This document shows positions 6,108 through 28,992 of a stretch of DNA of 64,000 nucleotides, one piece after another. This stretch comes from a virus. A program made the translations under genes and the position numbers. Location of the stretch: positions 64,088-128,087 of the IMG/VR virus record IMGVR_UViG_3300025872_000037, one strand, 5' to 3'. Within the stretch, counting starts at the first letter, position 1; each line of letters starts with the position of its first letter. The notes under the pieces are model-generated. The model was not told the origin of the DNA, did no database searches, and saw nothing but the letters and a program-made list of their open reading frames with translations.

Positions 6108-6109
6108 AT

Positions 6110-6267: not shown

Positions 6268-6275
6268 TTCATTTT

Positions 6276-6350: not shown

Positions 6351-6436
6351 TTTTCGTCCGCTTGTCTAGCGGGTTCGACGCGGTCGGTGCGATACGGTCC
6401 GCGATACCAAAAGCCTTAACCGTGTCGCCAATTTAT

Positions 6437-6564: not shown

Positions 6565-6571
6565 TCCCTTT

Positions 6572-6646: not shown

Positions 6647-6658
6647 ATTCATTTCTGC

Positions 6659-6735
6659 GCGCCAGTGTCGTTGAACGGTTAAACAGCTGTCTGCAAAGCA
6701 GCAAAATGCAGGTTCGATTCCTGTCTGGCGCTCCA
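6659..6735 (+). tRNA. tRNA-Cys(GCA)
   Basis: GCTGT-CTGCAAA-GCAGC, U73 discriminator, CCA; D-arm irregular. Confidence 0.85.
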
Positions 6736-6741
6736 ATTTAC

Positions 6742-6833
6742 GGAAGAGTGGCTGAGTGGGTTAAGGCAACGGTCTTGAAAACCGTCGTGGCGTATAGTCG
6801 TCACCGTGAGTTCGAATCTCACCTCTTCCGCCA
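6742..6833 (+). tRNA. tRNA-Ser(UGA)
   Basis: ACGGT-CTTGAAA-ACCGT, long variable arm, GCCA end. Confidence 0.95.
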
Positions 6834-6982
6834 TTTTATAGAGAGTTAAGGGCACTGCTACCGGACGATCGCGGTAGGTTCACGTAGCTTAATAAGCACA
6901 CATAGCTAAACACTCTCTTCTTTTTAGCCTCCACTTGAGGGTGAACCACAGAGCTGGGGTAGATGAATCCAGCAGGCTATTT

Positions 6983-7066
6983 GCACTAGTGATGGAACGG
7001 CAGACATGAAAGTCTTAGAAGCTTTTGCCGCGAGGCGTACAGGTTCAAGTCCTGTCTAGTGCACCA
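6983..7066 (+). tRNA. tRNA-Leu(UAG)
   Basis: AAAGT-CTTAGAA-GCTTT, long variable arm, ACCA end. Confidence 0.95.
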
Positions 7067-7075
7067 ACAATTTTA

Positions 7076-7151
7076 GGGCCATTAGCTCATTTGGCAGAGC
7101 GCCTGATTTGCATTCAGGAGGTGAGCGGTTCGACCCCGCTATGGTCCACCA
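7076..7151 (+). tRNA. tRNA-Ala(UGC)
   Basis: CCTGA-TTTGCAT-TCAGG; G3:U70 pair. Confidence 0.95.
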
Positions 7152-7154
7152 CTT

Positions 7155-7264
7155 TGGTGTAGGGTTAAGACGGTTCGAATCCGTCGTCGCCTTTGGATCG
7201 GCGCTAGTAAACCGTTTTGGACAAGGCGAGCGCTCGCTGATAAGGTTCGAACCCTTACACACCA
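7155..7264 (+). ncRNA. tRNA-like RNA with two T-arms
   Basis: GACGG-TTCGAAT-CCGTC and TAAGG-TTCGAAC-CCTTA within a TGGTGT/ACACCA closing stem. Confidence 0.55.
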
Positions 7265-7349
7265 ATCTATTCCTGCTGGGGCTCTGATCAGAGCGCGCAT
7301 AACGAGGAGCATCACCTCGAGAGTCCACGAACAGCAGGATTCAATTTAT

Positions 7350-7420
7350 GCCGGCACGGTCAATCGCGAGACTGGTTAAAATCAGACGAGAGTGTACTGA
7401 TACCGAAAATGCCGGCACCA
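7350..7420 (+). ncRNA. Acceptor-stem/CCA minihelix-like RNA
   Basis: GCCGGCA/TGCCGGC 7-bp stem plus ACCA; no D or T arms. Confidence 0.5.
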
Positions 7421-7428
7421 ATTTCTAC

Positions 7429-7503
7429 ACGGACGTGGTACATTAGTAGTGCAGCAGTCTCCAAAACTGCCTTATGGGGGTGCGATTCCCTCCGTCCGTG
7501 CCA
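7429..7503 (+). tRNA. tRNA-Trp(CCA)
   Basis: GCAGT-CTCCAAA-ACTGC, G73, CCA; T-loop TGCGATT is atypical. Confidence 0.85.
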
Positions 7504-7509
7504 TTTTAC

Positions 7510-7586
7510 GGGGTGGTAGCTCAGCTGGTTAGAGCGTCTGCCTGTCACGCAGAAGGTCGCGGGATCGAGGCCCGTCCATCCCGCCA
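7510..7586 (+). tRNA. tRNA-Asp(GUC)
   Basis: TCTGC-CTGTCAC-GCAGA, GCCA end. Confidence 0.9.
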
Positions 7587-7591
7587 TTTTT

Positions 7592-7666
7592 GCCGCCATC
7601 GTCTAACGGTCAGGACAGCGGGTTTTCATCTCGCTAATCGGGGTTCGATTCCCCGTGGTGGTACCA
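7592..7666 (+). tRNA. tRNA-Glu(UUC)
   Basis: GCGGG-TTTTCAT-CTCGC, CCA. Confidence 0.9.
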
Positions 7667-7699
7667 TTTTTACGTATGTTATAAATAGGTCATAAGTTT

Positions 7700-8140
7700 A
7701 TGACCAAAAACGAAAAAATTAGTCAAGCATTAAAGAAGCGTTTTAGCAAACAGCCGCATCACAAAAAAGGTAAAGCTGGTAAAAAGCACGATAAAATCGC
7801 AAAGCAAAAAATACGCGAAGCTTTAATAAAACATTATGATTCTGCAGGAAGAATGTCCGATGCGCAGAAAAAAGCACGCAATAAAGCTAATGTTTATGCT
7901 TACAGAGCTAGAAAACGAAATGCGATACCAGAAAATGCAAATTTAGCTCTAATAAAACTAATTTATGAAAAATGTCCAGAAGGTTATCACGTAGATCATA
8001 TAATTGCATTGGCATCTGGAGGTCTACACCATCAAGATAATCTTCAATATTTACCTATTGCGGAAAATTGCCGCAAAGGTAAAAGCAATAATTACAATTC
8101 TTCTTTAGCCAAAGATTGGCGAGATTTTATTGGCATGTAG
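7700..8140 (+). CDS. HNH homing endonuclease inserted in the tRNA cluster
   Basis: YHVDHIIALASGGLHHQDNLQYL..ENCRK; basic N-terminus; AT-rich; own TATAAATA at 7680-7687. Confidence 0.85.
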   Translation: MTKNEKISQALKKRFSKQPHHKKGKAGKKHDKIAKQKIREALIKHYDSAGRMSDAQKKARNKANVYAYRARKRNAIPENANLALIKLIYEKCPEGYHVDHIIALASGGLHHQDNLQYLPIAENCRKGKSNNYNSSLAKDWRDFIGM

Positions 8141-8205
8141 TTCAATGGTAGAACCCGCGACTGTTAATCGCGCAATTGGTTGTTCGACTCAACCCATGCC
8201 AGCCA
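8131..8205 (+). tRNA. tRNA-Asn(GUU)
   Basis: CGCGA-CTGTTAA-TCGCG, GCCA end. Confidence 0.9.
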
Positions 8206-8215
8206 GTTTATTTTT

Positions 8216-8292
8216 CGGCGCGTAGCACAGCCTGGTAGTGCACTTGCTTTGGGAGCAAGCCGTCGGGGGTTCGAATCCCTCCGCGCCGACCA
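8216..8292 (+). tRNA. tRNA-Pro(UGG)
   Basis: CTTGC-TTTGGGA-GCAAG, C1-G72, ACCA end. Confidence 0.95.
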
Positions 8293-8299
8293 TTTTCGA

Positions 8300-8374
8300 T
8301 GGCCCATTGTGTAATGGTTAGCACAGCTGACTTTGACTCAGCTAGTTGGGGTTCGAGTCCCTGTGGGCCAGCCA
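8300..8374 (+). tRNA. tRNA-Gln(UUG)
   Basis: GCTGA-CTTTGAC-TCAGC, U1-A72, GCCA end. Confidence 0.95.
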
Positions 8375-8484
8375 ATTTGAGCAGAGTCCTAGCTGTTCGT
8401 AAAACAGGAGCCGGTGTGATCGGTATTGCCGTTGTTCAGCGGGTAACCGTGCGCGGGAGAATCGGGTGCTGCTCTTTTTACTTT

Positions 8485-8580
8485 ATGAAAAAACCTGAAA
8501 ACTTATCACAGATCCTTCTAGTTATCCTGGCGGTCATCGCCGATATTTTCTTAATCGTAAACGTCATCCATCACTGGTGA
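8485..8580 (+). CDS. Small single-TM protein (31 aa)
   Basis: MKKPENLSQILLVILAVIADIFLIVNVIHHW. Confidence 0.5.
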   Translation: MKKPENLSQILLVILAVIADIFLIVNVIHHW

Positions 8581-8581
8581 C

Positions 8582-8722
8582 ATGATCACTCGTCTCGTTC
8601 AATTAGTGTTTCTTTCCGTTCTCATTCCGGCTGCGATCTCAGCATTTTTGATCGTGGCCGTTACGTTAACTGCAAGCATCGTGGTAGGATTTCTGGTCCT
8701 ATTCCACAGATTGCTCTCGTAG
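8582..8722 (+). CDS. Small hydrophobic membrane protein (46 aa)
   Basis: MITRLVQLVFLSVLIPAAISAFLIVAVTLTASIVVGFLVLFHRLLS; starts 1 nt after the previous stop. Confidence 0.5.
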   Translation: MITRLVQLVFLSVLIPAAISAFLIVAVTLTASIVVGFLVLFHRLLS

Positions 8723-8728
8723 CTTCTT

Positions 8729-8804
8729 GGTCCTGTAGCTCAATGGTCAGAGCAGAGGACTCATAATCCTTTGGTTGTGGGTTCAAGTCCCACCGGGACC
8801 ACCA
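8729..8804 (+). tRNA. tRNA(CAU), probably Ile2 (lysidine type) or elongator Met
   Basis: GAGGA-CTCATAA-TCCTT; C4-G69 and C5-G68 as in TilS substrates. Confidence 0.85.
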
Positions 8805-8819
8805 TATATACTTTTGTAC

Positions 8820-8895
8820 GCGGTAGTAGCTCAGTTGGTAGAGCGCCATCCTTCCAAGCTGGTTGTCGCAGGTTCGAATCCTGTCTGCCGCTCCA
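8820..8895 (+). tRNA. tRNA-Gly(UCC)
   Basis: CTTCCAA loop, GCG acceptor start, U73, CCA. Confidence 0.95.
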
Positions 8896-8904
8896 ATTTA
8901 CTTG

Positions 8905-8981
8905 GTCCTCGTAGCTCAACCGGAAAGAGCACCGTTTTTCTAAATCGGTGGTTGTGGGTTCGAGTCCCGCCGTGGACGCCA
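8905..8981 (+). tRNA. tRNA-Arg(UCU)
   Basis: CCGTT-TTTCTAA-ATCGG, GCCA end; two stem mismatches. Confidence 0.85.
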
Positions 8982-9077
8982 TTTTGACTTTGCGAGGAAT
9001 CGCAAATGGTGGAGGGGTAATCCCAACACCCCCTGGAAGTGGGAAGCGCATACTTAAATCACGCTTAACTAATTTTT

Positions 9078-9454
9078 GGGCCTGTTCTGGATTCTATTCA
9101 GTGACAGACTTATTGTAAGCAAGCATGGTTGCTGGACCATTCAACATCAGCAAAAACACAAACGGCATCTCAAATGTCATCGAGGCGATCTTCGGTACTC
9201 GTACCGAGGAGCTTCAGCTCGCAGCCTAAGAAACTGTGACCGACACGTCGTCCGATTCTCGCTGAGTCGACGGTCGTCATCAAGCGAGACTGATCTTCGA
9301 GAATTGTGGCTCGGTAGAAGAATCAGTACACTCTAGCCATTACGCCAGGAGAGTTGATAGCGACAGCTCCTGGCATGATCACAGCTATCTAAGCTTGTAG
9401 AAAACGATCGGAAAAGCACTGAACACACGGGTTCGACTCCCGTCAGGTCCACCA
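9078..9454 (+). ncRNA. ssrA: tmRNA
   Basis: GGGCCTG/CAGGTCC-ACCA with G3:U70, T-arm GGGTTCGACTCCC; tag reading frame 9164-9229 GISNVIEAIFGTRTEELQLAA*. Confidence 0.92.
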
Positions 9455-9661
9455 CTATTCCTTCGGTAACTTACGAAGGCAGACTAATCCCTCGACGAAG
9501 ACTACCTCAAACCTGTCGCCGTCCTCAACTCTGAGCATGGCGGGTGTGAGTTCTTCATCAAAGAAAAGTGAGCCATCAGTGGTAAGTCTGAGGTCGTATC
9601 CGTGGAATCTCATGGGTGTTCCTTTCTATTTATGAAATGCTTAGAATTCGTTCACTTTTTT

Positions 9662-9690
9662 GTTTACAGGGTCATGCGGCAGTGTATGAT
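9662..9690 (+). promoter_or_regulatory. Early-type promoter followed by a boxA-like element
   Basis: GTTTAC-N17-TATGAT; TGTTCTTTTTCAA at 9708-9720; only non-coding sequence follows. Confidence 0.7.
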
Positions 9691-9725
9691 CTGATCATAG
9701 TCAATTTTGTTCTTTTTCAACTTTT

Positions 9726-9970
9726 GTGACGGAATAAGCCTTTTCCTTAGGGCTAACGTATAACCACGGTGAAGAACCGCGGTTAGTTCCGGGACTTGTA
9801 AGTAAGTAAGGTACTACGCTGAGGCCTAGGTTGGCCAACCGAAGCTACCAGAGGTACGGGTTGTAAGCATGAAATATCATGATATGGCGACTCGTTACGG
9901 TGCGACGGCACCATCTGACTGAATAACTGAAGGCAAGTTCCCCGGATGGAGGTAATCATTAGTCCTCCCA
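9726..9970 (+). ncRNA. About 245-nt structured RNA, unknown family
   Basis: Long-range CCGGGACTTG/CAAGTTCCCGG, several hairpins, terminal GGAGG...CCTCC-CA hairpin; no credible ORF. Confidence 0.55.
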
Positions 9971-10001
9971 ATTTTTACTTTCGAGGCTTGATCTCCTCGA
10001 A

Positions 10002-10124
10002 ACCCTCTCCCTTAGCAGCATTCACTAATCTATTGTCTGCACGGATGTTCGGTAGGGAACAAATGCTGGTAATGATGAAATAGACATCGGCTGGCACTAC
10101 ACGACAACGCTACTGTGAGAGGGT
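10002..10124 (+). ncRNA. Structured RNA, unknown family
   Basis: ACCCTCTC/GAGAGGGT closing stem with internal CAGCATT/AATGCTG. Confidence 0.45.
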
Positions 10125-10219
10125 ACTCTTTCATCATACTCGACTAGGCGAGTCTAAATAGAAGAATAGGCCTAGTGCGGCAGATGCATCAGTGCGTAGC
10201 GCAAAGTGCATCTGCGACT

Positions 10220-10360
10220 TGCCACGCCACAGCTCCGGTGAGCTCAGGATTAAAGCTAAAAGCGCTGTGTGAATAAACACGAGGACAAAAATTGGCTAAT
10301 GTATATCTCATATGGCCGATAAATAAATCTCGTTGCGATAAGATATTCGCCAGCGTGGCA
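10220..10360 (+). ncRNA. Multibranch RNA with kissing loops, unknown family
   Basis: TGCCACGC/GCGTGGCA; loops ATATCT (10303) and AGATAT (10341) are complementary. Confidence 0.5.
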
Positions 10361-10386
10361 CCTCTTTCAAGTTCTTTTCAATTTAT

Positions 10387-10461
10387 TGCAGTGTGGAGCA
10401 GTGGCAGCTCGCTTGGCTCATAACCAAGAGGTCAGGGGTTCGATTCCCTTCTCTGCACCCA
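10387..10461 (+). tRNA. tRNA-Met(CAU), initiator-like
   Basis: GGAGCAG..GCTCG D-arm (A11-U24), CTTGG-CTCATAA-CCAAG; only two of the three G-C anticodon-stem pairs. Confidence 0.85.
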
Positions 10462-17926: not shown

Positions 17927-18928
17927 CTACTGTAAGGTAGGCGCAGATGGTGGAGGTGAAGGCGGAGGTACCGTTGTTGGTGCTTCCGCCTTTTTCTTTG
18001 CAAAGTGTGGTTTGCCCTTCGGATCTAATAGCACCATTGCAAGCACGCCCAATCCCATCACTGTCGCAACAACCCAGAACGGAATTGTGGCAGCGACATA
18101 TGACAGGCCAAGCATTGCAATACCAGAGACAATAAACGTCGGTGATTTCATCAGGAATCCGATCAGCAGCAGTAGAATACCCACGCCCAGCAGTGCCTTA
18201 ACAATCCATCCGACCATCTCAAGACGCTGCTTTTCTTTTGCAATCTCGACAGCATCTTTAGCTTCTTTAAGCATTCGTTCACGTTCTGCAGCTTGTTCTT
18301 CCTGAATCTTTTTTAGCGCAGTCGCTTGATCCATACGAAGCTTTACCTTTTCTGCTTCCTTCTTCTTGACAAGCGCATCGGCTTCCTCATAGCGTTTAGC
18401 AGCAGCTTGCGCCTCTTTGGTTTTTGCTTCGTACTTCTTTGTAATATCGACGAGTTCCTTCTTAACATCTTCCAGTATTTCTGCATCGATTGCTTTCTTC
18501 TTAGGATCAGGCACTGGCATTAGCATTTCCGCGTTTTCCTTGGCCTTGAGATTTGCAATCAGTACTCGCTTGTCGAGACCTACTACCTCTTCTGTAGCAG
18601 AAATGATGCCGTAGTTGATCTCTGAAATCTTGTCGAAATTCTCGTTGTCTACCTTTTCGCGTGCTGCATAAGCCGCTGCTAACTCCTGGCGAAACTTTTC
18701 GTATTGTGCCTCGAGTGCTCTGCGCGCTTCAGCTTCGCGCCGAGCAATTTCTGTCATACGATCCACTGCGCCTGCTGTTGCCGTTGCGCCTGCGACAGTA
18801 CCCGAGGTGTCGCCATTATTCTTATTGAGTCGATCACCTAGCGACCCTATCTTACTTCCTAAACCCATCAGCATTTGGCAACCAGTGAGCAAAAATAGTA
18901 AAGGTAATACTGCAAGTAATCGCATCAT
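17927..18928 (-). CDS. Lipoprotein with long coiled coil and C-terminal TM helices (spanin-like topology)
   Basis: LLFLLTG-C lipobox, about 200-aa charged helical region, 3-4 hydrophobic segments, Pro-rich tail. Confidence 0.75.
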   Translation of the reverse strand: MMRLLAVLPLLFLLTGCQMLMGLGSKIGSLGDRLNKNNGDTSGTVAGATATAGAVDRMTEIARREAEARRALEAQYEKFRQELAAAYAAREKVDNENFDKISEINYGIISATEEVVGLDKRVLIANLKAKENAEMLMPVPDPKKKAIDAEILEDVKKELVDITKKYEAKTKEAQAAAKRYEEADALVKKKEAEKVKLRMDQATALKKIQEEQAAERERMLKEAKDAVEIAKEKQRLEMVGWIVKALLGVGILLLLIGFLMKSPTFIVSGIAMLGLSYVAATIPFWVVATVMGLGVLAMVLLDPKGKPHFAKKKAEAPTTVPPPSPPPSAPTLQ

Positions 18929-18935: not shown

Positions 18936-18947
18936 TATTTATAAATA
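18936..18947. promoter_or_regulatory. Overlapping divergent T4 late promoters
   Basis: Palindrome TATTTATAAATA gives TATAAATA on both strands, 7 nt from each divergent ATG. Confidence 0.8.
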
Positions 18948-18954: not shown

Positions 18955-19530
18955 ATGGAGAATATTGCTAAAAGTGAATGCGGCAGAGTCCATGGGCCTA
19001 ATTGGCTCAAATGGATAGGACATCTTAAGGGTAAGCCCAACATTGTTGGCATGGAACTTGGCACTTTTCAGGGTGATTCTGCTCAATGGTTTCTTGACAA
19101 CATCTTTACTGACCCTACTAGCAAGTATATCTGTGTTGATCCATTCACAGGATCAGTCGAGCATTCTATCGCAAGAATTGACTGCACGAAGAACGAGTCA
19201 ATCACCCGCGAAAAGCTCAAGCAATATTCTAATGTCGTCATTCATACAGAGTATTCAAATCAGCTGCTCTGGGGTAGCAATCTCCAGCTTGATTTTGTTT
19301 ACATCGATGCTGCGCACGATGCAATGAACGTGCTACGCGATGCAGTACTTTCATTTGAAATACTAAGGCCGGGTGGCGTGATAGTATTTGATGACTACAG
19401 CTGGCGCGTAATGCCGCGAGACATTGATTGCCCAGGAGTAGCAATTGATGCATTTGCCACGTGCTATGCGGATCACATCGAATTTCTAGGAAAAGGATCG
19501 CAATACGCGATTCGCAAACTCAATAAATAA
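18955..19530 (+). CDS. Class I SAM-dependent methyltransferase (Methyltransf_24-like)
   Basis: ELGTFQGDS, CVDPF, DFVYIDAAH, LRPGGVIVFDDY. Confidence 0.85.
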   Translation: MENIAKSECGRVHGPNWLKWIGHLKGKPNIVGMELGTFQGDSAQWFLDNIFTDPTSKYICVDPFTGSVEHSIARIDCTKNESITREKLKQYSNVVIHTEYSNQLLWGSNLQLDFVYIDAAHDAMNVLRDAVLSFEILRPGGVIVFDDYSWRVMPRDIDCPGVAIDAFATCYADHIEFLGKGSQYAIRKLNK

Positions 19531-20383: not shown

Positions 20384-21129
20384 ACATTCAGGTTCTGATC
20401 CTCGCCTTTAACGAGGAAACTATATTACCCTACACGCTGCGGCACTACCGCACGTTTGCAGACAAGATACTAGTTTACGATGCATTCTCGACAGACAATA
20501 GCCGTAACATCTGTCGAGAATACGGAGCAATAGTGCAGGATTGGAAGACTGATGGTCTAAATGATGCGGTAGCAAAGCATATCAAGAATACCGGCTGGAT
20601 CAATAACCACAAGTCAGACTGGGTAATTTGTGTAGATGCAGATGAGCTGATCTACTTTCCAAAGGGTGTTCAGTATACGCTCGAGCAGTACGATTCGCAA
20701 AAGCTAGGTGTGATCAAGCCATATGGATTTGAGATGTTCAGCGAAACAATGCCCACTACATCTGGTCAGATTTACGATGAGATCAAGATGGGTGGTCGCG
20801 ATGATAAGTGGTATGGAAAGCCAGTACTGTTCTCGCCCAGACGACTACGCAGCATAGATTTTTCTGCAGGTGCTCATACCTGCACTTGGATCGACATTGA
20901 TGGAAATGATCGGCAGTGTCCATCACCAGAGGTTGAACCACCAACATACTTATTGCATTATCACCACATCGGGCCAATCGAAAGAATTGCAGCGCGTTAT
21001 GACGCCACTCGTGCTCGTCTATCTAAAACAAATGTGGACAATAAGTGGGGAAATTTTGACCCTGGAATAAAACACGCGCAAGATAAGCGTAAAGCAATAA
21101 GCAAAACGCTCCATCAGGTAATAGCCTAG
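20380..21129 (+). CDS. Glycosyltransferase family 2
   Basis: AFNEE, VYDAFSTDNS, WVICVDADE (DxD), LLHYH. Confidence 0.85.
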   Translation: MNIQVLILAFNEETILPYTLRHYRTFADKILVYDAFSTDNSRNICREYGAIVQDWKTDGLNDAVAKHIKNTGWINNHKSDWVICVDADELIYFPKGVQYTLEQYDSQKLGVIKPYGFEMFSETMPTTSGQIYDEIKMGGRDDKWYGKPVLFSPRRLRSIDFSAGAHTCTWIDIDGNDRQCPSPEVEPPTYLLHYHHIGPIERIAARYDATRARLSKTNVDNKWGNFDPGIKHAQDKRKAISKTLHQVIA

Positions 21130-21146
21130 GTAATAGCTCAAGAATC

Positions 21147-21154
21147 TATAAATA
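21147..21154 (+). promoter_or_regulatory. T4 late promoter heading the curli/cyclase operon
   Basis: TATAAATA. Confidence 0.7.
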
Positions 21155-21183
21155 TGGATGACGCCTCACCCAGCGTCACCTTT

Positions 21184-21342
21184 ATGGATTCAAAATCTCC
21201 AGCTGAAGAAAGAGCAAAGAAAATAGCAATTCAGTCGATTGCCTATCAAGGCGACCGAGTGTTAGATGCTATCTATGCTCTTGTGATTGGCGCAGCAATG
21301 GGATTTACTTTGGGTTTTATGGTTTCAGCATTACTTACCTAA
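21184..21342 (+). CDS. Small protein with C-terminal TM segment
   Basis: ORF 21154-21342; the first ATG overlaps the promoter, so 21184 is preferred. Confidence 0.5.
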   Translation: MDSKSPAEERAKKIAIQSIAYQGDRVLDAIYALVIGAAMGFTLGFMVSALLT

Positions 21343-21343
21343 T

Positions 21344-21604
21344 ATGAGCGCAAACGAAGATCCTATTTTTGATTTTGGATTTACAGCAGTTGACGAGAAC
21401 GAACTGGAGGTCACAAAGCAAGTTGATGTGGCGTACCAGCGCGTTGCCGAGCACGAGGACAAGCTTAATCGGCTTTATAATGCAATACTTCCTCTCCTAC
21501 AGAATCTAAAGAAGAACCCAGAAAAGGAATACATTAAGTGGCCTAATCGCGTCAAGAAGGTAGAGGAGTTTGAGACATTCATCGCCAAGATCATCACTGA
21601 ATGA
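21344..21604 (+). CDS. Conserved T4-like hypothetical protein
   Basis: FDFGFTAVDE...ILPLLQNLKKNPEKEYIKWPNR. Confidence 0.75.
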   Translation: MSANEDPIFDFGFTAVDENELEVTKQVDVAYQRVAEHEDKLNRLYNAILPLLQNLKKNPEKEYIKWPNRVKKVEEFETFIAKIITE

Positions 21605-21885
21605 ACTTCGAGACCTTCAAGTCAATAATGGATTTGGGCTTCTCGGTAGCCGCAGTGGCTGTCGGCGGAGTCTTCATAGTGATCTTACTGAAGTACATCC
21701 TGGCCGGAGTTGTTTCAGATGTGGAATCGCTCAACGGTCTGGCTACGATGTTGAACAATCGTATTCGTACCATGAATAACGATCTGATTAGGATTGACGC
21801 TCTTGTATCCTCGCGCTTTGGTCTGAGAGTCGATCTAGAAAGATTGGCGCGTACTGACGGAAAGACCGATGCAAGAAGAGATTAA
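21601..21885 (+). CDS. Membrane-anchored coiled-coil protein
   Basis: N-terminal TM; RIRTMNNDLIRID. Confidence 0.75.
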   Translation: MNFETFKSIMDLGFSVAAVAVGGVFIVILLKYILAGVVSDVESLNGLATMLNNRIRTMNNDLIRIDALVSSRFGLRVDLERLARTDGKTDARRD

Positions 21886-22225
21886 TACTTTTAAAAATGC
21901 AGTAAACCAATACGGCCTGCCCATCATGGCTGCGGGCGGCATGGGATACTTCATTTACTTCGTCTGGAAATTTGTGACTGAAAATATCAACTCGAAGCTA
22001 TCAGAAGCAAAGAAAACGATGATTGCTCTGATCGATAGAATCCGTATGCTCGATAACGATCTGATTCGTCTTGAGCAAAAGATCAATACTGCTATCGAGG
22101 TACAACGCGGCGAAAATCCAATAAGCCGCACAAACCCTCCAATACCAAAACCGGATGAAACAAAACCGCAACCAGTCATCAGACACGTGGATGCTTCTAA
22201 CTCTAGCAATAATCCTGTTTCTTAG
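21869..22225 (+). CDS. Membrane-anchored coiled-coil protein, paralog of the previous gene
   Basis: N-terminal TM; RIRMLDNDLIRLE. Confidence 0.75.
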   Translation: MQEEINTFKNAVNQYGLPIMAAGGMGYFIYFVWKFVTENINSKLSEAKKTMIALIDRIRMLDNDLIRLEQKINTAIEVQRGENPISRTNPPIPKPDETKPQPVIRHVDASNSSNNPVS

Positions 22226-22655
22226 CATAATGCCATCTTGTGTCCGTGGATCGGACATGGTGCATTCGTTTAAGTCTCCAGCATTCAACGGTATCGGGTA
22301 TTCATCTCATGTTTTTACTCAGGAGAATTTAGCACGTACTCGAAAGCAGACAATTAAGGACGTTGCGAAGGCAGAGGCAGAAAATCTTAAGCTTGCAGGG
22401 CAGAATACTCCGCTGAATAACTTCATCGTTAATCTTCAGGCAAGAATCTACTCGCAGCTTGCATCTCAGGTTACCGACGAGATCTTCAATGCATCGGGTG
22501 CTACTTTTGGCGTTATCAATTTGCAAGGTGGAGCAACAGTAACATGGAATAGAGCAGGGGATTTTGTCACTCTGTACATCGTCGATCCTTCTACAGGAAA
22601 TACGACTTCAATTCAGGTGCCAGTAGGATCGCTAGGCACTCCTCCAAACGGATGA
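22155..22655 (+). CDS. csgF: Curli assembly protein CsgF-like
   Basis: Signal peptide then MVHSFKSPAFNG (CsgF F-x-NP-x-FGG-like), F..NLQARIYSQL, TTSIQVP; start may be 22191. Confidence 0.8.
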   Translation: MKQNRNQSSDTWMLLTLAIILFLSIMPSCVRGSDMVHSFKSPAFNGIGYSSHVFTQENLARTRKQTIKDVAKAEAENLKLAGQNTPLNNFIVNLQARIYSQLASQVTDEIFNASGATFGVINLQGGATVTWNRAGDFVTLYIVDPSTGNTTSIQVPVGSLGTPPNG

Positions 22656-23467
22656 TACGAGCGCTGATAGCAATTACGCTGGGGCTGTCTTTAGTTGGCT
22701 GTGGCTCGCTGCCGAGATCGCCGCGCATTATCGAAGCGCCGTTGGCTCAACAGTCACCATTGCAGAAGCAACTCAATTCTCTGCCAACAATGGATGGCAG
22801 CCGAATCACGATTGCTGTCTATACATTTGCTGACAAGACTGGACAGAGAAAAACAGTTGATCAGTATGCATCCTTTTCTTCGGCCGTTACTCAAGGTGCA
22901 GAATCATGGTTGATCGATGCACTCAGAATTGCAGGACAGGGCAAGTGGTTTCAGGTTCTAGAACGCGCATCTCTGGACAATCTTATCAAGGAACGGCAGT
23001 TGATCGCGCAGACACGAGAATCCTTCTTCGGTAAAGAGGCCGAAAAACTATCACCACTACTTTTTGCGGGAATCATCGCAGAAGGCGGGATTATCGGATA
23101 CGACACTAACGTACTGACAGGAGGAGCCGGTGCCAGCTTACTTGGAATCTCTGGTAGCACTCAGTACCGCAAAGATGTAGTTACTGTTTCGCTTCGATTC
23201 ATTTCAGTTCAAACTGGCGAGGTCCTACTGTCTGTGGCTGTCACAAAGACAATCACAAGTGTCGCGACCTCCGGAAACCTTTTTAAGTTTTATGAGCATG
23301 GAGTAACTCCCGCAGAATCGGAAATTGGCCTGACTGCAAACGAACCCAACACAATTGCGGTTCGCAGTGCTATTGACCAGGCTGTGATTGAAATCATATA
23401 TCAGGGAGCCAAAACTGGATTATGGAAATTCGTCACAGCTAACAACCAACCCACAACCGACAAATGA
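22652..23467 (+). CDS. csgG: Curli secretion channel CsgG
   Basis: LVGC lipobox, IAVYTFADKTGQRK, FSSAVTQGA, WFQVLER..LDNLIKERQLI, EGGIIGYDTN. Confidence 0.92.
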   Translation: MIRALIAITLGLSLVGCGSLPRSPRIIEAPLAQQSPLQKQLNSLPTMDGSRITIAVYTFADKTGQRKTVDQYASFSSAVTQGAESWLIDALRIAGQGKWFQVLERASLDNLIKERQLIAQTRESFFGKEAEKLSPLLFAGIIAEGGIIGYDTNVLTGGAGASLLGISGSTQYRKDVVTVSLRFISVQTGEVLLSVAVTKTITSVATSGNLFKFYEHGVTPAESEIGLTANEPNTIAVRSAIDQAVIEIIYQGAKTGLWKFVTANNQPTTDK

Positions 23468-24270
23468 AGACCTCAGTCGTAGCACTCACACTGCTTCTGC
23501 TCTCAGCTGCGACAGCACTGGCTCAGAATCAGATATACATAAATCAAATAACAACTGGTGGAAACACCACGCTCGTTCAGGTTGGAAGCCTGAACAAAAT
23601 CGGCACTTCGGCTGCAGCCCAAAGTGACATCACTGGAGATAACATCGTGTTCGAGATGCGCCAAATCGGCAATAGTAATGACACGAAGTTCTCCATTGCT
23701 AGCGCCAATAATCTGAAATTACTGACAGTTGCTACTGGCAACAGCAACACTCAACAGTATTACTTCAGCGGCGCCAGCAACAATGCAAACATACTGCTGA
23801 ATGGAAACTCAAACAAGTTCTTACTCAATGGAGATACCTCGGTGGATCACACATCGAATAGTGATACCACTAAGGCTACCTTCACCAATTCGGACCTTAT
23901 CTTCAACGTTCAAGGTAATTCCAACGACCTGCGCTTTGGAATTAGTTCAGGTAAATACAACTACCTGGACTACTCGATCACTGGTGACTCCAATAACATC
24001 AAGTCCACCCAAATCGGAAACCCAGGAGGCGCTGCTGCAAAAACTGGTCACGAGCAGACCGTTGTGCTTACAGGCTCAAGCAACAACCTGACAATCTATC
24101 AGGCCGGACTTGAAAAGCAGACTCTGAACTACACGATGACTGGATCGACAAATAACGTGCAGATTGTTCAGACAACTGCCGGTTATGCTCCGATTATGAC
24201 TACAAATGGAACGAATGGACCTACTGGGCCATCACAGACTACAAATTCAATTACTCCTCCAGGAAATTGA
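23464..24270 (+). CDS. Curlin-like (CsgA/CsgB-type) repeat protein
   Basis: Signal peptide; repeated x-Q-x-G-x-x-N units (NQIYINQ, VQVGSLN, RQIGNSN, VQGNSN, TGDSNN, TGSSNN). Confidence 0.7.
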   Translation: MKTSVVALTLLLLSAATALAQNQIYINQITTGGNTTLVQVGSLNKIGTSAAAQSDITGDNIVFEMRQIGNSNDTKFSIASANNLKLLTVATGNSNTQQYYFSGASNNANILLNGNSNKFLLNGDTSVDHTSNSDTTKATFTNSDLIFNVQGNSNDLRFGISSGKYNYLDYSITGDSNNIKSTQIGNPGGAAAKTGHEQTVVLTGSSNNLTIYQAGLEKQTLNYTMTGSTNNVQIVQTTAGYAPIMTTNGTNGPTGPSQTTNSITPPGN

Positions 24271-24285
24271 TTTAGTCTTTAGATT

Positions 24286-25431
24286 ATGAAGTTTGGCCAG
24301 ACAGCCGCTATTGCTTTAGCTTTAGCGGCTGCTTCGTCTGCAAAGGCTTATATCGGAAAGATGATGGAGGTCACTGGCCCTACGCAGATCGTGCGAGGCA
24401 AAGACAAGATTGAAGGTAAAGTAGAGGTTGGAGTTGAGATGAATGACTCAGTCGAGACTTTAAAATCTCGTGTGTCCATCACGTTCGAGGATAATACTAA
24501 GATGCAAGTCACAGAGTTCTCGAAGCTCAAGATCGATGAGTTCGTTTATGATCCAAAGAGTGGTAAAGGATCACTGTCTGTCAAGGCTGCATTCGGCACT
24601 GTGAGGTACGCATCCGGAGCCATTGCCAAGAACAGTCGAGAAAACGTCAAGGTTCAGACTCCGACAGCCAAGGTTTCGGTGCGTGGTACTGACTTCTCTA
24701 TGACGGTATCGGAGGACGGCAAGAGTCTGATCGTCCTTTTACCATCAAAGCCACTGGCGGCCGGAGGACCTCCGTTGGTTGGAGAGATCTCAGTGTCGAA
24801 TCTCTCCGGAACTGTGATGCTCAATCAGGCGTATCAGGCCACATTCGTTGCGTCATCCACGATTGCACCGACAGTACCAGTGATACTAGACTTTCAGGAT
24901 GAGTCAAAGATCAACAATATGCTCATCGTGGAGACTCCGCGCCAGGTGTCTCAGGCTGTTAAAGAGCAAAAGAAAGAAAAGCAGAATCAATCTAGCAATG
25001 AAGAAGATAATAAACCGAAAAGGGGAGCCAGCACAAAGTCTGAAAACAATAAGACTGCGGTTTCTCAGGTCGATACGCCACCAACTGCTGAAGCAGTGGC
25101 TCAGACAGAAGAGCCAGCTCCTGTCGAAACTAAGTTAGAATTGGCAGCAATCCAGCCTGCAGTATTGCAGGCGGCCGCTCAGGCAATCGAGAAGGTAGTG
25201 GCTCCAGCTGCGCCAGTTACTCCTGTTCTGGTAAGTATGACAACAAATCCTGGATGGTCTACAGATGGAGTGAATGCTATACTCTCGCTTGATAACAGCG
25301 GACAGATCCTGTACTACACCACAAAAGCAAATGCCAGTCTGACAGTGGAGGTCACGACAGCAGCAGGTACTAAAACATACCCGCTAAACTTTGGCGATAA
25401 ATCATCTGTGAAAGTAATACAAAAGAAATGA
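24286..25431 (+). CDS. Periplasmic FecR-domain protein
   Basis: Signal peptide; ITFEDNTKMQVTEFSKLKIDEFVYDP, VQTPTAKVSVRGTDF. Confidence 0.85.
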   Translation: MKFGQTAAIALALAAASSAKAYIGKMMEVTGPTQIVRGKDKIEGKVEVGVEMNDSVETLKSRVSITFEDNTKMQVTEFSKLKIDEFVYDPKSGKGSLSVKAAFGTVRYASGAIAKNSRENVKVQTPTAKVSVRGTDFSMTVSEDGKSLIVLLPSKPLAAGGPPLVGEISVSNLSGTVMLNQAYQATFVASSTIAPTVPVILDFQDESKINNMLIVETPRQVSQAVKEQKKEKQNQSSNEEDNKPKRGASTKSENNKTAVSQVDTPPTAEAVAQTEEPAPVETKLELAAIQPAVLQAAAQAIEKVVAPAAPVTPVLVSMTTNPGWSTDGVNAILSLDNSGQILYYTTKANASLTVEVTTAAGTKTYPLNFGDKSSVKVIQKK

Positions 25432-27470
25432 AGAAACATACTCTCAAAACACTTGCAGTTGGCTTTAGTGTGCTCGTCGTAGCAATCTTGCTACGTATCT
25501 GGGATCCATATCCGATTGAGGTGTTACGCCTAAAAGGTTTAGATTACTACCAGCGACTACAAGAAAAGCGTGTGGCAGAAAACATCGCGGTGATCGAGAT
25601 CGATGAAGACGCGCTAGAAACAAATGGCCAATGGCCCTGGAAGCGCGATGTTCTTGCCGCGGGTATTCAGCGGGCATTTGACGAAGGCGCGTCAGCTGTT
25701 GTGCTTCCAATCATTTTTGCAGAACCAGATCGTCTAGGCGGCGATGCTGCATTTGTCGAGCAACTCGGCAAGGCGCCAGTCATCATCGCTCAATCGGCTG
25801 CACAAAAGGGCAAAGGTGAGCCAGTACCGCGCGGTCTTGCAACAATCGGCGGAGGTGCTGAAGATTGGCTATTCGATTATCCAGCGGCAATAGGACCAGT
25901 TGGTGACATTGGTAAATCAGCTGCAGGTGTAGGCATGCTACTAACAGCACCCGAACTTGATGGCGTGGTACGTCGCTTACCACTGATTGTTCAGGTCAAA
26001 GGCGAGAAATATCCTACTCTACCACTTGAAGTGCTGCGCGTCTTTGGCGGCGAGGCAAGCAATCAAGCTAAAGTATCTGAGGCGGGTATTTCAGCAATTC
26101 GAGTTGCTGGTATTCCGCCAATCAAAACCGATGCGAATGCGCGAGTCTGGCTCAATTTCAAGTATACCTTTCCATCGGTAGCATACACCGCAAAAGATTG
26201 GTCAGCGATAAAAGGAAAGATTGTTGTTATCGCGCCGACAGCAGAAGGTCTTGCAAATACTGTTGCTACTCCACTCGGAACAAGTTATGGATATGAAGTT
26301 AATCTGCAGGCATTGCAAATGCTGATCGATGAAGCACGTCTCGAACGTCCCGCAGAATTTGATCTGTATGAGCTAGGCGCTGGTCTGCTAGTTGCAGCAA
26401 TTGCAGTGGTAACGATCTGCTACCTAGGATATGGCATCGCTGGCCTGATCTTTGCTGTACTTGCTGCTCTGCCGATCGGCGCAGGATTCTATCTGTTTAA
26501 TCTGGGTATGCTTGCCGACTATACCTGGATCGTGGGCGCGTTGATTGCAAGCTGGGGATCTGCGCTGTTTATGCGCTTCGTGATGGAATTCAAGCTCAAG
26601 CAGCAAATCAAGAAGCAGTTCGAGACATACCTCTCACCGGATCAGGTCGCACAGCTGCAGAAGAATCCCGATGCACTCAAGCTGGGTGGCGAGGAACGCG
26701 AGCTCTCGATTATGTTCACTGATGTCCGCGGATTCACCGCGATCTCTGAGCACTACGGAAAGAACGTGCAGGGACTGACGCAGATTATGAACCGCTATAT
26801 GACTGCAATGACGCGCTCGATCATTGAAAAGAAAGGCACACTTGACAAGTACATCGGTGATGCTCAGATGGCATTTTGGAATGCGCCGCTTGATGATAGT
26901 TCTCATGCCATCCATGCCGTCGAGACAGGACTTGAAATGATGGGTAGCCTCAAAGCGTTCAATGAAGAGATCGCAAGGGAAGGTGTGCCGGCATTCGGTA
27001 TGGGATTGGGAATTAACACTGGTACTGTAGTCGTAGGCAATATGGGATCTGAGCAGCGGTTCGACTACACCTGTCTAGGCGACCACGTCAATCTTGCTTC
27101 TCGCCTTGAGGGTCAGTCAAAACCGTACGGCGTCAAAATTGTGCTTGGACCAGTGACACGAGAGAAGGTCAAGGATGTCTATCCTACGCTCGAGCTCGAC
27201 TGCATTGCAGTGAAAGGCAAGAAAGAAGGCGTGAAGATCTACACTGTTTTCGATAAGGGTACTAGTACCTATTCTAGCAGCCATGACCATTTCTTGGAAT
27301 ACTACCGCGCACGCCAGTGGGACAAAGCGATTGCACTGGCAAAAGACCTTGCTACTCGGATGGATTTCATGGCTGGATACTATGAGATGATGATCGAACG
27401 AATCGAGTATCTGCGCGACAATGACCCGGGCGAACAGTGGGATGGCGTCTACAGAGCGACATCTAAGTAG
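25428..27470 (+). CDS. CHASE2-domain class III adenylate cyclase
   Basis: GQWPWKR, FAEPDR, DGVVRR (CHASE2); 3 TM; MFTDVRGFT, DKYIGDA, RFDYTCLGDHVNLASRLE (Lys/Asp specify ATP). Confidence 0.93.
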   Translation: MKKHTLKTLAVGFSVLVVAILLRIWDPYPIEVLRLKGLDYYQRLQEKRVAENIAVIEIDEDALETNGQWPWKRDVLAAGIQRAFDEGASAVVLPIIFAEPDRLGGDAAFVEQLGKAPVIIAQSAAQKGKGEPVPRGLATIGGGAEDWLFDYPAAIGPVGDIGKSAAGVGMLLTAPELDGVVRRLPLIVQVKGEKYPTLPLEVLRVFGGEASNQAKVSEAGISAIRVAGIPPIKTDANARVWLNFKYTFPSVAYTAKDWSAIKGKIVVIAPTAEGLANTVATPLGTSYGYEVNLQALQMLIDEARLERPAEFDLYELGAGLLVAAIAVVTICYLGYGIAGLIFAVLAALPIGAGFYLFNLGMLADYTWIVGALIASWGSALFMRFVMEFKLKQQIKKQFETYLSPDQVAQLQKNPDALKLGGEERELSIMFTDVRGFTAISEHYGKNVQGLTQIMNRYMTAMTRSIIEKKGTLDKYIGDAQMAFWNAPLDDSSHAIHAVETGLEMMGSLKAFNEEIAREGVPAFGMGLGINTGTVVVGNMGSEQRFDYTCLGDHVNLASRLEGQSKPYGVKIVLGPVTREKVKDVYPTLELDCIAVKGKKEGVKIYTVFDKGTSTYSSSHDHFLEYYRARQWDKAIALAKDLATRMDFMAGYYEMMIERIEYLRDNDPGEQWDGVYRATSK

Positions 27471-27532
27471 ATCAACGACTTACGTAACTTTCTTTCCTGT
27501 ACTTTTAGCTCAAGGTATGTAGTGTAGTGATA

Positions 27533-27787
27533 ATGAAACTGCACTACTTTACCTCGGATCAATTCAAGTGGAAGGGTACTCACGGTACTGCTAAGATTAG
27601 TGATATACTGAGCAACCGTCACGAGAACATCAGCCGGTTTGCCATTACTTCTATTCGTACTGGACAAACTCGTTTCTACGAGATCGATACCAATGCGCCT
27701 GGGTATGAAGACGGATGGGACGGCGAATTCAAGTGCTATACCGACAATCTTTTCGATGGTACTCGGATTACTATAGTGAACGACTGA
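27533..27787 (+). CDS. Small early hypothetical protein
   Basis: Leaderless behind CTGTAC-N17-TAGTGT. Confidence 0.65.
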   Translation: MKLHYFTSDQFKWKGTHGTAKISDILSNRHENISRFAITSIRTGQTRFYEIDTNAPGYEDGWDGEFKCYTDNLFDGTRITIVND

Positions 27788-27791
27788 TAGT

Positions 27792-28174
27792 CAGTTACTT
27801 ACGTAACTTTCTTTCCTGTACTTTTTGAGCCATTTGTGTAGGATATTGCCATGATGAATGCTAAGCAACTTGCCGCTCGTACTAATGTCGTGACATCCTT
27901 TGTCTCTAAATCTTGGATGACTGACGGTACGCGAACTGTAGTTCAGTTTTTGCCGCGCGAAAAGCAAGTTATTGGACAGACACAAACTCGCGAGCGCGAG
28001 ATCATCGCTAGCTCGGTCTTGCCCGTCAAAGAAGACGACTGGGCGTTGCTCTACAAAGTTTTTGCAACTAACACGAGTTTTGAGCGTTGGGAGATGTCCT
28101 ACTGAGCATCAACGGGTTACGAACTTTTCTGTCCTGTACTTTTTGAGCCATTTGTGTAGGATATTGCTATGATG
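27792..28174 (+). repeat. Near-identical duplicated early-promoter cassettes (27792-27856 and 28110-28174; related copy at 27473-27525)
   Basis: Shared TCCTGTACTTTTTGAGCCATTTGTGTAGGATATTGC(C/T)ATGATGAA. Confidence 0.85.
27851..28105 (+). CDS. Small early hypothetical protein
   Basis: Leaderless; TAGGAT + 6 nt + ATG. Confidence 0.7.
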   Translation: MMNAKQLAARTNVVTSFVSKSWMTDGTRTVVQFLPREKQVIGQTQTREREIIASSVLPVKEDDWALLYKVFATNTSFERWEMSY

Positions 28175-28563: not shown

Positions 28564-28992
28564 ATGAAAATGATACTTGCGCTTCTTGCTCTGACGACCG
28601 CTGCGGCTGCTGCCGACCAGTCGCGTCTGATTGATGCGTTGATCCGCGTCGAGTCAAATGGCAACGCCGCTGCGGTGGGCGACTCCGGCAAAGCTCTCGG
28701 CATTCTTCAGATCCATGCGATTACTGTCGCCGAGGCTAACCGCCTGTCTGGCAAGCACTTTACGCATCGTGAGATGCTCGACCCTACTAAGGCGCGCGCT
28801 GTTGCCGAGATTGTGCTAAGCCATTACTCTAAACACATTAGCAAAACGACCGGCCGTGATGCGACCAACAAGGAATTGGCGTTCATCTGGAACGGTGGTG
28901 CGGGCGCATGGAAGCGAGTCGCCAATCCGGTGGCCGACGCCAAGCAGAAGAACCTCGAGAACTACTGGAACAAAGTTTCGCGGTCGCTGTAA
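28564..28992 (+). CDS. Secreted lysozyme-like / lytic transglycosylase-fold protein
   Basis: Signal peptide; LIRVES (catalytic Glu), AVGDSGKALGILQI, WNGG, YWNKV. Confidence 0.8.
   Translation: MKMILALLALTTAAAAADQSRLIDALIRVESNGNAAAVGDSGKALGILQIHAITVAEANRLSGKHFTHREMLDPTKARAVAEIVLSHYSKHISKTTGRDATNKELAFIWNGGAGAWKRVANPVADAKQKNLENYWNKVSRSL

Follow-up and report, generated by a model that had tools for sequence, protein, structure and literature searches.

Phages of Pelagibacter are known to carry genes for type VIII secretion (T8SS), the curli system. In podo- and myo-pelagiphages, Wittmers et al. (2022) described a cassette made up of a protein labelled 'HK' (histidine kinase), CsgF, CsgG, CsgA/B, FecR, often a second CsgA/B, and an adenylate cyclase, for which their paper gives an alphaproteobacterial origin, a metatranscriptome signal and a world-wide distribution (PMC9599517). 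For the myophage Melnitz, Buchholz et al. (2022) deal with CsgG and CsgF only, which are proposed to form a lysis pore, and their text contains neither the word 'cyclase' nor 'FecR' (PMC9004378). Here, we analyse a cassette of this kind in a 64-kb stretch of viral DNA (64,000 nucleotides, referred to as the window; positions 64,088 to 128,087 of the IMG/VR record IMGVR_UViG_3300025872_000037). The source record comprises 128 kb and is 76% complete, and the window belongs to a T4-like myophage, with genes for the baseplate wedge and hub, the tape measure and a ligase. Judging by its sequence, the locus is near certain to be a freshwater T4-like copy of the published viral cassette. It adds a further, freshwater example of a published module, and the part that we consider worth carrying forward is the comparative support for a putative sensing pair formed by the FecR-fold protein and the CHASE2 domain of the cyclase.

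A bacterial precedent for part of the module is the symbiosis pathway of Sinorhizobium meliloti that involves NsrA, the original paper on which is said to be Garnerone 2018. In this pathway, which belongs to bacterial symbiosis and not to a phage, the CHASE2 cyclases CyaD1, CyaD2 and CyaK are activated via an outer-membrane beta-barrel, with Clr downstream. The first-pass annotation of the window had pointed to this precedent, and rightly so, as the source places NsrA upstream of all three cyclases (PMC13001267). According to published work, CHASE2 domains as a group have neither a known ligand nor a known partner (PMC5192318).

A freshwater copy of the pelagiphage curli cassette

The module that the window shares with the pelagiphages consists of seven genes:

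21601-21885, plus strand: S1, bitopic membrane protein of 94 aa containing a coiled-coil helix (phrog_18771, 2.2e-23)
21869-22225, plus strand: S2, paralogue of S1 (118 aa) whose tail is of low complexity (phrog_18771, 1.4e-31)
22155-22655, plus strand: CsgF-like protein with a signal peptide; alternative later start at 22191 (PF10614, 2.4e-15)
22652-23467, plus strand: CsgG, an outer-membrane channel lipoprotein (PF03783, 1.2e-49)
23464-24270, plus strand: curlin-like secreted beta-solenoid of 268 aa with a signal peptide (repeats, AlphaFold2 (AF2) model, family Curlin_rpt)
24286-25431, plus strand: exported FecR-fold protein (PF04773, 1.4e-9)
25428-27470, plus strand: CHASE2 domain plus class IIIb adenylate cyclase (CHASE2 3.2e-41, Guanylate_cyc 3.4e-20)

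The same order, S1, S2, CsgF, CsgG, curlin, FecR and cyclase, is found in the pelagiphages HTVC008M (gp011-019) and Melnitz (gp97-104), to whose proteins the seven are 22-55% identical (for FecR, over the N-terminal 230 aa only). For the cassette overall, the identity to the two phages was also put at 36-55%, and the window copy was rated a member at 40-48% identity. The presence of csgF and csgG in Pelagibacter myophages, as asserted at first pass, is borne out by their annotation in both genomes. The two pelagiphages carry a second curlin gene between FecR and the cyclase (curlin homologues gp101 and gp103 in Melnitz, gp016 and gp018 in HTVC008M), whereas the window copy has one curlin only. 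It also differs from them in its freshwater habitat, a G+C content of ~0.46-0.48 and two extra small genes at the 5' end.

With these two small open reading frames (ORFs), here called w1 and w2, the run extends to nine plus-strand ORFs (21154-27470) with spacings of 1 or 15 nt and overlaps of 4 to 71 nt. From 5' to 3', a 1-nt gap is followed by overlaps of 4 nt (w2/S1), 17 nt (S1/S2) and up to 71 nt (S2/CsgF), by two further overlaps of 4 nt, a 15-nt gap and a final 4-nt overlap; the 4-nt overlaps at the CsgF/CsgG, CsgG/curlin and FecR/cyclase junctions were counted in favour of an operon. Neither w1 (no Pfam or PHROG match) nor w2 (no family match) has a homologue in Melnitz or HTVC008M, so that the conserved module comprises the seven genes at 21601-27470. 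Of the nine-gene operon proposed at first pass, the nine packed plus-strand ORFs behind a promoter-like box thus stand, whereas only seven of them belong to the conserved module.

The freshwater habitat was assigned from three DNA runs that hold 94-96% of the region's sampled words; runs with a small share (X4-X24) were not used, apart from four whose contigs were compared with the region. These contigs, from riverine metatranscriptome runs of four studies, were 90-99% alike and covered parts of S1/S2, CsgF, curlin, the cyclase and downstream genes. Such RNA-library contigs show neither strand nor ends, nor absence.

Linkage of the csg, FecR and cyclase genes among phages

A megablast search of the region against 50,697 phage records gave no match, and relatives were recovered only by protein-level search. 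Among the phage records, only those of Melnitz (4 records) and HTVC008M (2 records) matched both the cyclase and CsgG in the protein search; the remaining matches were partial, to the cyclase domain in two Acinetobacter phage records and to CsgG in a 1.5-kb Salmonella phage fragment. The viral collection held at least 590 confirmed relatives of CsgG and at least 577 of the cyclase. The cassette is common in viruses and, in the cultured cases, supplies an envelope structure and a second-messenger enzyme that are absent from the hosts.

Linkage was scored in the best 80 loci of each search (CsgG and cyclase; 146 loci in total, a sample biased to near relatives), using family hidden Markov models (HMMs) built from these same loci. 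CsgF, curlin, FecR and the cyclase were present in 36/36 CsgG-anchored loci with at least 9.5 kb of downstream sequence, and CsgG, curlin and FecR were found in each of the 47 loci anchored on the cyclase for which 4.5 kb or more of upstream sequence was available. The genes are colinear in these loci. With a shorter upstream requirement (at least 1.3 kb), FecR preceded the cyclase in 60 of 62 loci. Independent assortment of the csg and cyclase genes had been named at first pass as evidence that would speak against a joint system; among the nearest relatives the genes do not assort in this way (36/36 and 47/47), apart from four exceptions that are weighed below.

For comparison with bacteria, cyclase relatives were collected from one genome per species, which yielded 80 loci, 77 of them mostly from Alphaproteobacteria and Elusimicrobia and ~35% identical to the phage protein. 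Loci on 'Bacteroidetes' metagenome-assembled genomes (MAGs; L150-L152, 49-63% identity) were considered as a bacterial csg-cyclase cassette and rejected, as they nest in the phage clade and two of them show the phage gene order: L150 runs from CsgG to the cyclase, L152 is a complete cassette and L151 has the cyclase alone. The most probable explanation is that contigs of phages were assigned to these MAGs during binning. A FastTree phylogeny was computed for 114 cyclases, with an arbitrary root on L179 and without six of the 77 bacterial ORFs (each under 600 aa). In this tree, the phage or phage-like sequences (43/43) formed one clade (support 1.0) apart from the 71 bacterial ones, which suggests a single origin of the phage cyclases. 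The window sequence belongs to a large clade that includes neither HTVC008M nor Melnitz, and the cyclases of L121 and L133, two of the exceptional loci, nest among those of complete cassettes.

The CsgF/CsgG pore and the curlin-like protein

With the curli system of E. coli the locus shares a clear CsgG homologue, CsgF (by Pfam) and a subunit solenoid with the Q-x-G-x-x-N repeat. It differs in that the record (128 kb, 76% complete) gave no CsgE match (PF10627) at E <= 0.1 and in that the subunit falls below the Curlin_rpt threshold; CsgC and CsgD were not searched for. The phage in turn adds FecR, the cyclase and S1/S2. CsgG aligns with E. coli CsgG (3x2r, 4q79, 6l7a; 1.8e-42), including the lipobox LVGC with Cys17. 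In the aligned constriction loop the Phe is kept and the Asn is replaced by Ser, two residues that presumably have functional roles in the channel. CsgF is 36-38% identical to the pelagiphage CsgF proteins and had no match among PDB sequences at E <= 1.

The 268-aa protein had no Pfam match of its own, and no further Curlin_rpt was found in the record. However, 18 of the 39 phage members of its family (alignment A2) do match Curlin_rpt, with a best value of 9e-10, and the Q-x-G-x-x-N repeat shows invariant columns across the 39 homologues (Q39/G41/N44, Q67/G69/N72, G92/N95 and G114/N117). The AF2 model, with a predicted local distance difference test score (pLDDT) of 82, is a stacked strand-turn-strand solenoid. 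A Foldseek search of this model against PDB returned nothing at E <= 0.001; in the VIA exhaustive search of 48,161 chains the best match was CsgA (8c50_A; Z 17.8, root-mean-square deviation (rmsd) 8.9, 207 aligned residues), a rank tied with SufD-type beta-helices (Z 17.5 and 17.0). From the repeats and the predicted fold, we read the protein as a divergent curlin-family solenoid.

These components raise the possibility, for which Zaragoza-Solas 2020 is reportedly also to be named, that infected cells bear curli-like amyloid fibres, which would either aggregate cells ('sibling capture') or shield them from superinfection, with FecR and the cyclase only regulating the fibre or the host. We regard this as rather unlikely if still a serious candidate, and it would be compatible with the combined export and sensing picture that we set out below. 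CsgG, CsgF and Curlin_rpt-type subunits are all present, the best fold match of the curlin model is CsgA, FecR and the csg genes persist without a cyclase in the related locus L072, and fibres are what Wittmers et al. propose (PMC9599517). Conversely, Melnitz-infected cells showed no clumping in cytograms or by transmission electron microscopy, according to Buchholz et al. (PMC9004378), and the missing CsgE and the sub-threshold score of the window subunit do not favour fibres either. Gene regulation by cyclic AMP (cAMP) would, by inference, also have little time to act late in the lytic cycle. The first-pass annotation had declared the locus 'not a biofilm-fibre system'; this exclusion is not supported, CsgF and Curlin_rpt-type subunits being requirements of a fibre system.

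A different function for the same pore was suggested by Buchholz et al., namely that CsgG, with or without CsgF, acts as a gated secretin or pinholin-like pore that times lysis by opening or depolarising the envelope, and they make a structural argument to this effect for Melnitz (PMC9004378). We consider it very improbable for the present locus. What speaks for it is that S1 and S2 are small bitopic proteins, whose named look-alikes include a holin family (with scores under the tool's bar), and that an enzyme of the following kind recurs 3' of the module:

28564-28992, plus strand: SLT-type lytic transglycosylase, ~1.1 kb downstream of the module (PF01464, 2.9e-9)

The outer-membrane topology of CsgG is established, and from there the protein cannot depolarise the inner membrane; a lysis pore would also leave the conserved curlin, FecR and cyclase unexplained. 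Homologues of the SLT-type enzyme lie 3' of the cyclase in many related loci (for example L004, L028, L084-L096, L108 and L112-L116). The enzyme could open the peptidoglycan for the envelope structure or could be the endolysin, and its tie to the module is putative.

The FecR-fold protein

The FecR protein has a signal-peptide-like start and no membrane helix. Its AF2 model consists of a beta domain at residues 22-205 (pLDDT ~95; domain to ~212), a disordered linker at ~210-320 and a beta-sandwich at 324-378. The beta domain matched the CCSSD of PupR (6ovk_R; Z 15.0, rmsd 2.7, 135 aligned, model residues 51-212) and the anti-sigma protein 4m0n (Z 14.3). A further match, to the 'cell surface anchoring domain' 5ix9, concerns the N-terminal half of the FecR domain (model residues 20-115, Z 6.9) and not the C-terminal domain, for which Protein Atlas returned generic Ig-like sandwiches only. 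The family profile had no match among PDB sequences at E <= 1.

E. coli FecR cleaves itself between G181 and T182 (PMC12036975), which in the K-12 protein lie in the sequence LGTEF. The phage family contains the triplet R133-G134-T135, invariant in 42/42 phage homologues, and both Gly134-Thr135 and the E. coli pair fall at about position 74-75 of the Pfam profile, an equivalence drawn from Pfam domain coordinates (110-202 to 2-96; 56-149 to 3-89) and not residue by residue. When the phage FecR HMM was compared with E. coli FecR, the resulting alignment (E 0.037) was spurious and was not used for this purpose.

The phage protein shares with the FecA-FecR-FecI and PupB-PupR systems the periplasmic fold and has a Gly-Thr pair at about the position of self-cleavage, and the module as a whole would share their logic of an outer-membrane protein that signals to an output at the inner membrane. 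In contrast to these systems, a signal peptide takes the place of the anti-sigma domain and membrane anchor in the phage protein, FecR_C/STN is absent, and the module contains neither an extracytoplasmic function (ECF) sigma factor nor a TonB-dependent transducer; its output would be the cyclase and not a sigma factor. Sequence and model together point to a protein that has the FecR fold and perhaps FecR chemistry and that is not an anti-sigma regulator.

The CHASE2 adenylate cyclase

The last protein of the module has a transmembrane segment at residues 4-28, a periplasmic CHASE2 domain (Pfam 17-325), hydrophobic segments at 311-386, the cyclase domain at 420-610 and a tail of ~70 aa. It aligns with CyaB (3r5g, 1.8e-31), 2w01/6fht and CyaC. 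Compared with CyaB 3r5g, D432, D478, K474, T548, N555 and R559 are in place, and T548 conforms to the class IIIb pattern. We take D432 and D478 to bind the metals, K474 and T548 to contact the substrate and N555 and R559 to act on the transition state, in line with the residue roles in class III cyclases. Among 38 phage homologues, down to 35% identity, D432, R434, K474, D478, R559 and E561 are invariant, whereas position 548 is T in 25, D in 12 and S in one, and position 555 is N in 28 and S in 10. The first-pass reading of this site was accurate for both metal-binding Asp residues, Lys474, Asn555 and Arg559, and wrong about the substrate pair, which is Lys474/Thr548 in the window and not Lys/Asp as in 12/38 of the relatives. 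We predict an intact class IIIb adenylate cyclase, the invariant residues being counted in favour of activity.

FecR-CHASE2 pairing in bacteria

In the 77 closest bacterial cyclase loci, a FecR domain lay within 10 kb in 28. When Pfam was run on 44 chosen neighbours, three settings emerged. In the first, the cyclase is accompanied by a type I secretion system (T1SS; TolC-type OEP, ABC transporter and HlyD) and a giant FecR-headed protein with cadherin, Ig or RTX repeats; differing parts of this arrangement were confirmed in L164, L181, L186, L204 and L223, and at least eight more loci show a like gene-size pattern. In the second setting, found in the Elusimicrobia loci L179 and L216, a CsgG-domain-TPR protein (52.9 and 36.3 bits; cut-off 20.8) and a FecR protein of 435-470 aa lie beside the cyclase. 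The third is represented by L187, the sister of the phage clade, where a 1294-aa FecR-TPR-TonB-barrel protein ends 6 nt before the cyclase. The outer-membrane partner thus varies (T1SS, CsgG-domain-TPR or TonB barrel) while FecR persists.

The alphaproteobacterial T1SS cassette, which harbours the closest bacterial homologues of the cyclase (~35% identity), resembles the phage module in that the export channel is encoded alongside, and it places FecR at the periplasm-facing end of the exported surface protein. The two differ in the secretion system, T1SS instead of T8SS, and in that FecR is fused to the cargo in the bacteria and a separate protein in the phage. Our literature search on CHASE2 with FecR did not find a description of a cassette with T1SS, FecR-adhesin and CHASE2 cyclase.

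A survey of 121 alphaproteobacterial genomes identified CHASE2 in 52 of them (120 places) and FecR in 57 (at least 150 places). By hand-matching of the two lists, a FecR-domain match, either at most 10 kb away or in the neighbouring gene, was assigned to no fewer than 29 of the 120 CHASE2 places. Seven of these are phage-like, with a same-strand FecR ORF of 210-310 aa lying ~0.2 kb upstream (G119:C87, G031:C13, G089:C36, G034:C1, G076:C193, G066:C1 and G103:C49). Previous work provides related cases: Burkholderia has an operon of a LysM-FecR protein and a CHASE2 kinase (PMC5192318), and the FecR-domain gene smc02177 of S. meliloti is a Clr target that is not needed for plant signal perception (PMC5498481). 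From the locus tags, we infer that smc02177 lies next to cyaD1. Altogether, FecR and CHASE2 genes recur side by side in bacteria independent of curli, often together with an outer-membrane export device.

These neighbourhoods also bear on an option raised by Wittmers et al., in which CsgG would be ungated and import cofactors or iron compounds, with FecR as an iron-related sensor. Apart from the suggestion itself (PMC9599517), the lack of a detectable CsgE gate would fit. However, the nine genes include neither an anti-sigma domain nor a TonB-dependent transducer, and the bacterial FecR-CHASE2 pairs adjoin adhesin exporters and not iron genes, which makes iron or cofactor import extremely unlikely.

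As a separate observation, the alphaproteobacterial region G058:C1:514783-528253 contains three tandem FecR ORFs of ~970 aa, each by a short CHASE2 fragment, plus a full CHASE2 protein.

A possible link between T8SS export and cAMP

We tentatively favour, at a little less than an even chance, a two-part reading of the cassette in which T8SS export is combined with a FecR/CHASE2 sensor pair that would turn the envelope state into cAMP. According to this reading, the operon would be expressed together with the late genes, and the lipoprotein CsgG and CsgF would form a pore in the host outer membrane, through which the Sec-exported curlin-like solenoid would leave the cell. The FecR-fold protein would remain periplasmic as a partner of the pore or of the cargo, in a phage in which no CsgE was found. 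Together with the periplasmic CHASE2 domain it would constitute a sensor pair that sets the cyclase activity, and the state of the phage-built envelope structure would in this way be passed on to cAMP in the infected cell. By analogy with FecR, the protein may be processed to two pieces that stay associated and could act as the switch when they separate; such processing is suggested because the invariant Gly-Thr lies at the FecR self-cleavage position. The FecR-CHASE2 pair is proposed because of the gene neighbourhood in phages and, independent of curli, in bacteria. FecR is linked to the pore for a single reason: it always accompanies the csg genes, from which the cyclase is at times separated. 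Co-folding of CHASE2 29-312 (A4) with FecR 22-235 (A3) scored 0.00 against a mark of 0.32, a result that weighs neither way.

Several observations count against the two-part reading. CsgG, CsgF and curlin were found within 10 kb, using the phage-derived HMMs, in none of the 77 closest bacterial cyclase loci, so the union of csg genes and cyclase is a phage speciality without a bacterial model, save the two Elusimicrobia CsgG-domain cases. In the alphaproteobacterial survey, we estimate, without a formal null, that ~2 such FecR-CHASE2 cases would be expected by chance, since genomes of 2-6 Mb hold between one and ten FecR genes. The phage FecR has none of the membrane anchor, anti-sigma domain (DUF4880) and FecR_C seen in E. 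coli FecR, and no cyclic nucleotide-binding (cNMP-binding) domain was found in the record (76% complete). The cyclase also occurs without adjacent FecR or csg genes: in L121 (1559-5603) it lies between a GIY-YIG gene and a tryptophan halogenase gene, in L133 (184-5186) between genes for a subtilase and a tryptophan halogenase, and in L151 it is located 3' of an amidoligase-like gene, which argues that the FecR/cyclase sensor pair is separable. The reverse situation is found in L072, where S1, S2, CsgF, CsgG, curlin, FecR and curlin are followed by no cyclase in 4.6 kb downstream. Moreover, in the account of Wittmers et al. the cyclase is only 'frequent', and many podoviruses have FecR and the csg genes without it (PMC9599517). 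This implies a cAMP-independent role of FecR with the pore. Lastly, the RNA-library contigs may hold DNA, and FecR 24416-25297 was uncovered in the four runs.

A more directional version had been put forward in the first-pass annotation, in which an outside cue, such as a superinfecting phage or cell contact, is relayed via pore, curlin and FecR to the CHASE2 cyclase in order to control lysis timing or to blunt cyclic-nucleotide immunity. The comparative FecR-CHASE2 evidence, the NsrA precedent upstream of CHASE2 cyclases and a late-promoter-like box agree with such a chain. However, nothing joins curlin to FecR, the proposed cues and outputs are speculative, and the cyclase is dispensable in some carriers. 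There is also no adjacent lysis gene, the nearest being a weak Rz-like match (17927-18928) and the SLT enzyme at 28564-28992. We therefore judge the full chain to be improbable.

Returning to the two-part reading, a broader form of it, which we consider unlikely but still worth stating, would treat the FecR fold as a general periplasmic coupler that reports the state of an export channel or its cargo to CHASE2. A single, undescribed sensing system that spans the envelope would then exist in interchangeable versions: T8SS and free FecR in the phage cassette, T1SS and a FecR-headed adhesin in Alphaproteobacteria, and CsgG-domain-TPR proteins or TonB-barrel fusions elsewhere. In the phage version, self-cleaved FecR would replace CsgE at the CsgG vestibule, the cyclase would be switched on fibre engagement or stalled secretion, and cAMP would serve as a read-out of cell contact. 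If FecR-fold proteins are indeed the partner of CHASE2, the phage operon would offer a compact system for CHASE2 switching, and the pairing would bear on rhizobial CyaD1/CyaD2/CyaK and on the adhesin-linked alphaproteobacterial cyclases.

The small membrane proteins S1 and S2

S1 is 55% identical to HTVC008M gp011 and S2 54% to gp012. The alignment shows two paralogues, each bitopic, that share a conserved amphipathic helix. The 'HK' label that Wittmers et al. gave to these proteins was rejected, as the alignment contains no invariant His and no kinase family or structure was matched; the S1/S2 profile gave 43 weak rows against PDB sequences, coiled-coil and other non-kinase proteins with a best E of 0.044. 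In Protein Atlas, S1 hit only viral clusters without a family, next to PilN-like and holin-like look-alikes below the tool's bar. Across related loci the S1/S2 genes relocate around the module, lying either 3' of it on the opposite strand or between FecR and an inverted cyclase. We argue from these varying positions, which nevertheless stay by the module, that S1/S2 are functionally tied to it and not placed there by an accident of gene order.

The upstream region and the promoter-like box

The region 5' of the conserved module contains the following features:

21147-21154, plus strand: TATAAATA, a T4-type late-promoter-like box (motif enrichment)
21154-21342, plus strand: w1, 62 aa (52 aa from the probable start 21184), with a C-terminal membrane helix (hydrophobic 35-62)
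21344-21604, plus strand: w2, 86 aa, a small soluble, lineage-specific ORF (no family)

The TATAAATA motif is enriched in the window, with nine copies against 2.17 expected, a number reached in 0/100 shuffles, and the remaining copies lie 7 to 60 nt ahead of ORF starts. The copy at 21147-21154 ends with the A that also begins the ATG at 21154, and the next in-frame ATG is at 21184. Because of this overlap, a transcript from that box cannot hold the start at 21154, and w1, if it is a real gene, more likely starts at 21184. Of 72 distinct related loci, only 11 have a box at most 100 nt 5' of the first module gene detected there. The box is spanned by an RNA-library contig of a relative (X20 record 10, 21077-21848). 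Within the related loci, w1 was found in L004 and L050 only, and w2 in L004, L005, L050 and L085 only; L004, L050 and, in part, L005 are 94-95% identical relatives that include the first two ORFs. Elsewhere in the window, at 18936-18947, two overlapping divergent TATAAATA boxes lie between a minus-strand ORF (17927-18928) and a plus-strand methyltransferase gene (18955-19530), an arrangement that looks like a bidirectional late-promoter-like site.

Sequence downstream of the module and other features of the window

A terminator scan gave 16 sites against 9.9 +/- 3.4 expected, with no plus-strand site in the interval from the cyclase stop to the following ORF. Downstream of the cyclase, X20 and X22 RNA-library contigs of close relatives join 27513 to 27837 via ACTT and thus skip 27514-27836, which implies that those strains lack the 86-aa ORF at 27527-27787.

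The G+C content is ~0.46-0.52 in 1-34000, which contains the tRNAs, the replication genes and the csg module, compared with ~0.38-0.43 in 34000-56000, the tail and baseplate region. An array of 17 tRNA genes occupies 4865-10461. One of the predictions, at 6571-6647, was called by ARAGORN with the four-base anticodon 'cctg' (Rfam tRNA, 42.7 bits) and is either a frameshift-type tRNA or a caller artefact. A one-piece transfer-messenger RNA (tmRNA) is located at 9078-9454 (RF00023, 91.8 bits; tag peptide end LQLAA). For Melnitz, Buchholz et al. report a two-piece tmRNA behind a glutamine riboswitch (PMC9004378); here, no riboswitch scored at the gathering level. Between the tmRNA and a tRNA-Met, at 10138-10197, there is a match to the Pistol ribozyme (36.9 bits against a gathering score of 34.5, E 0.0039).

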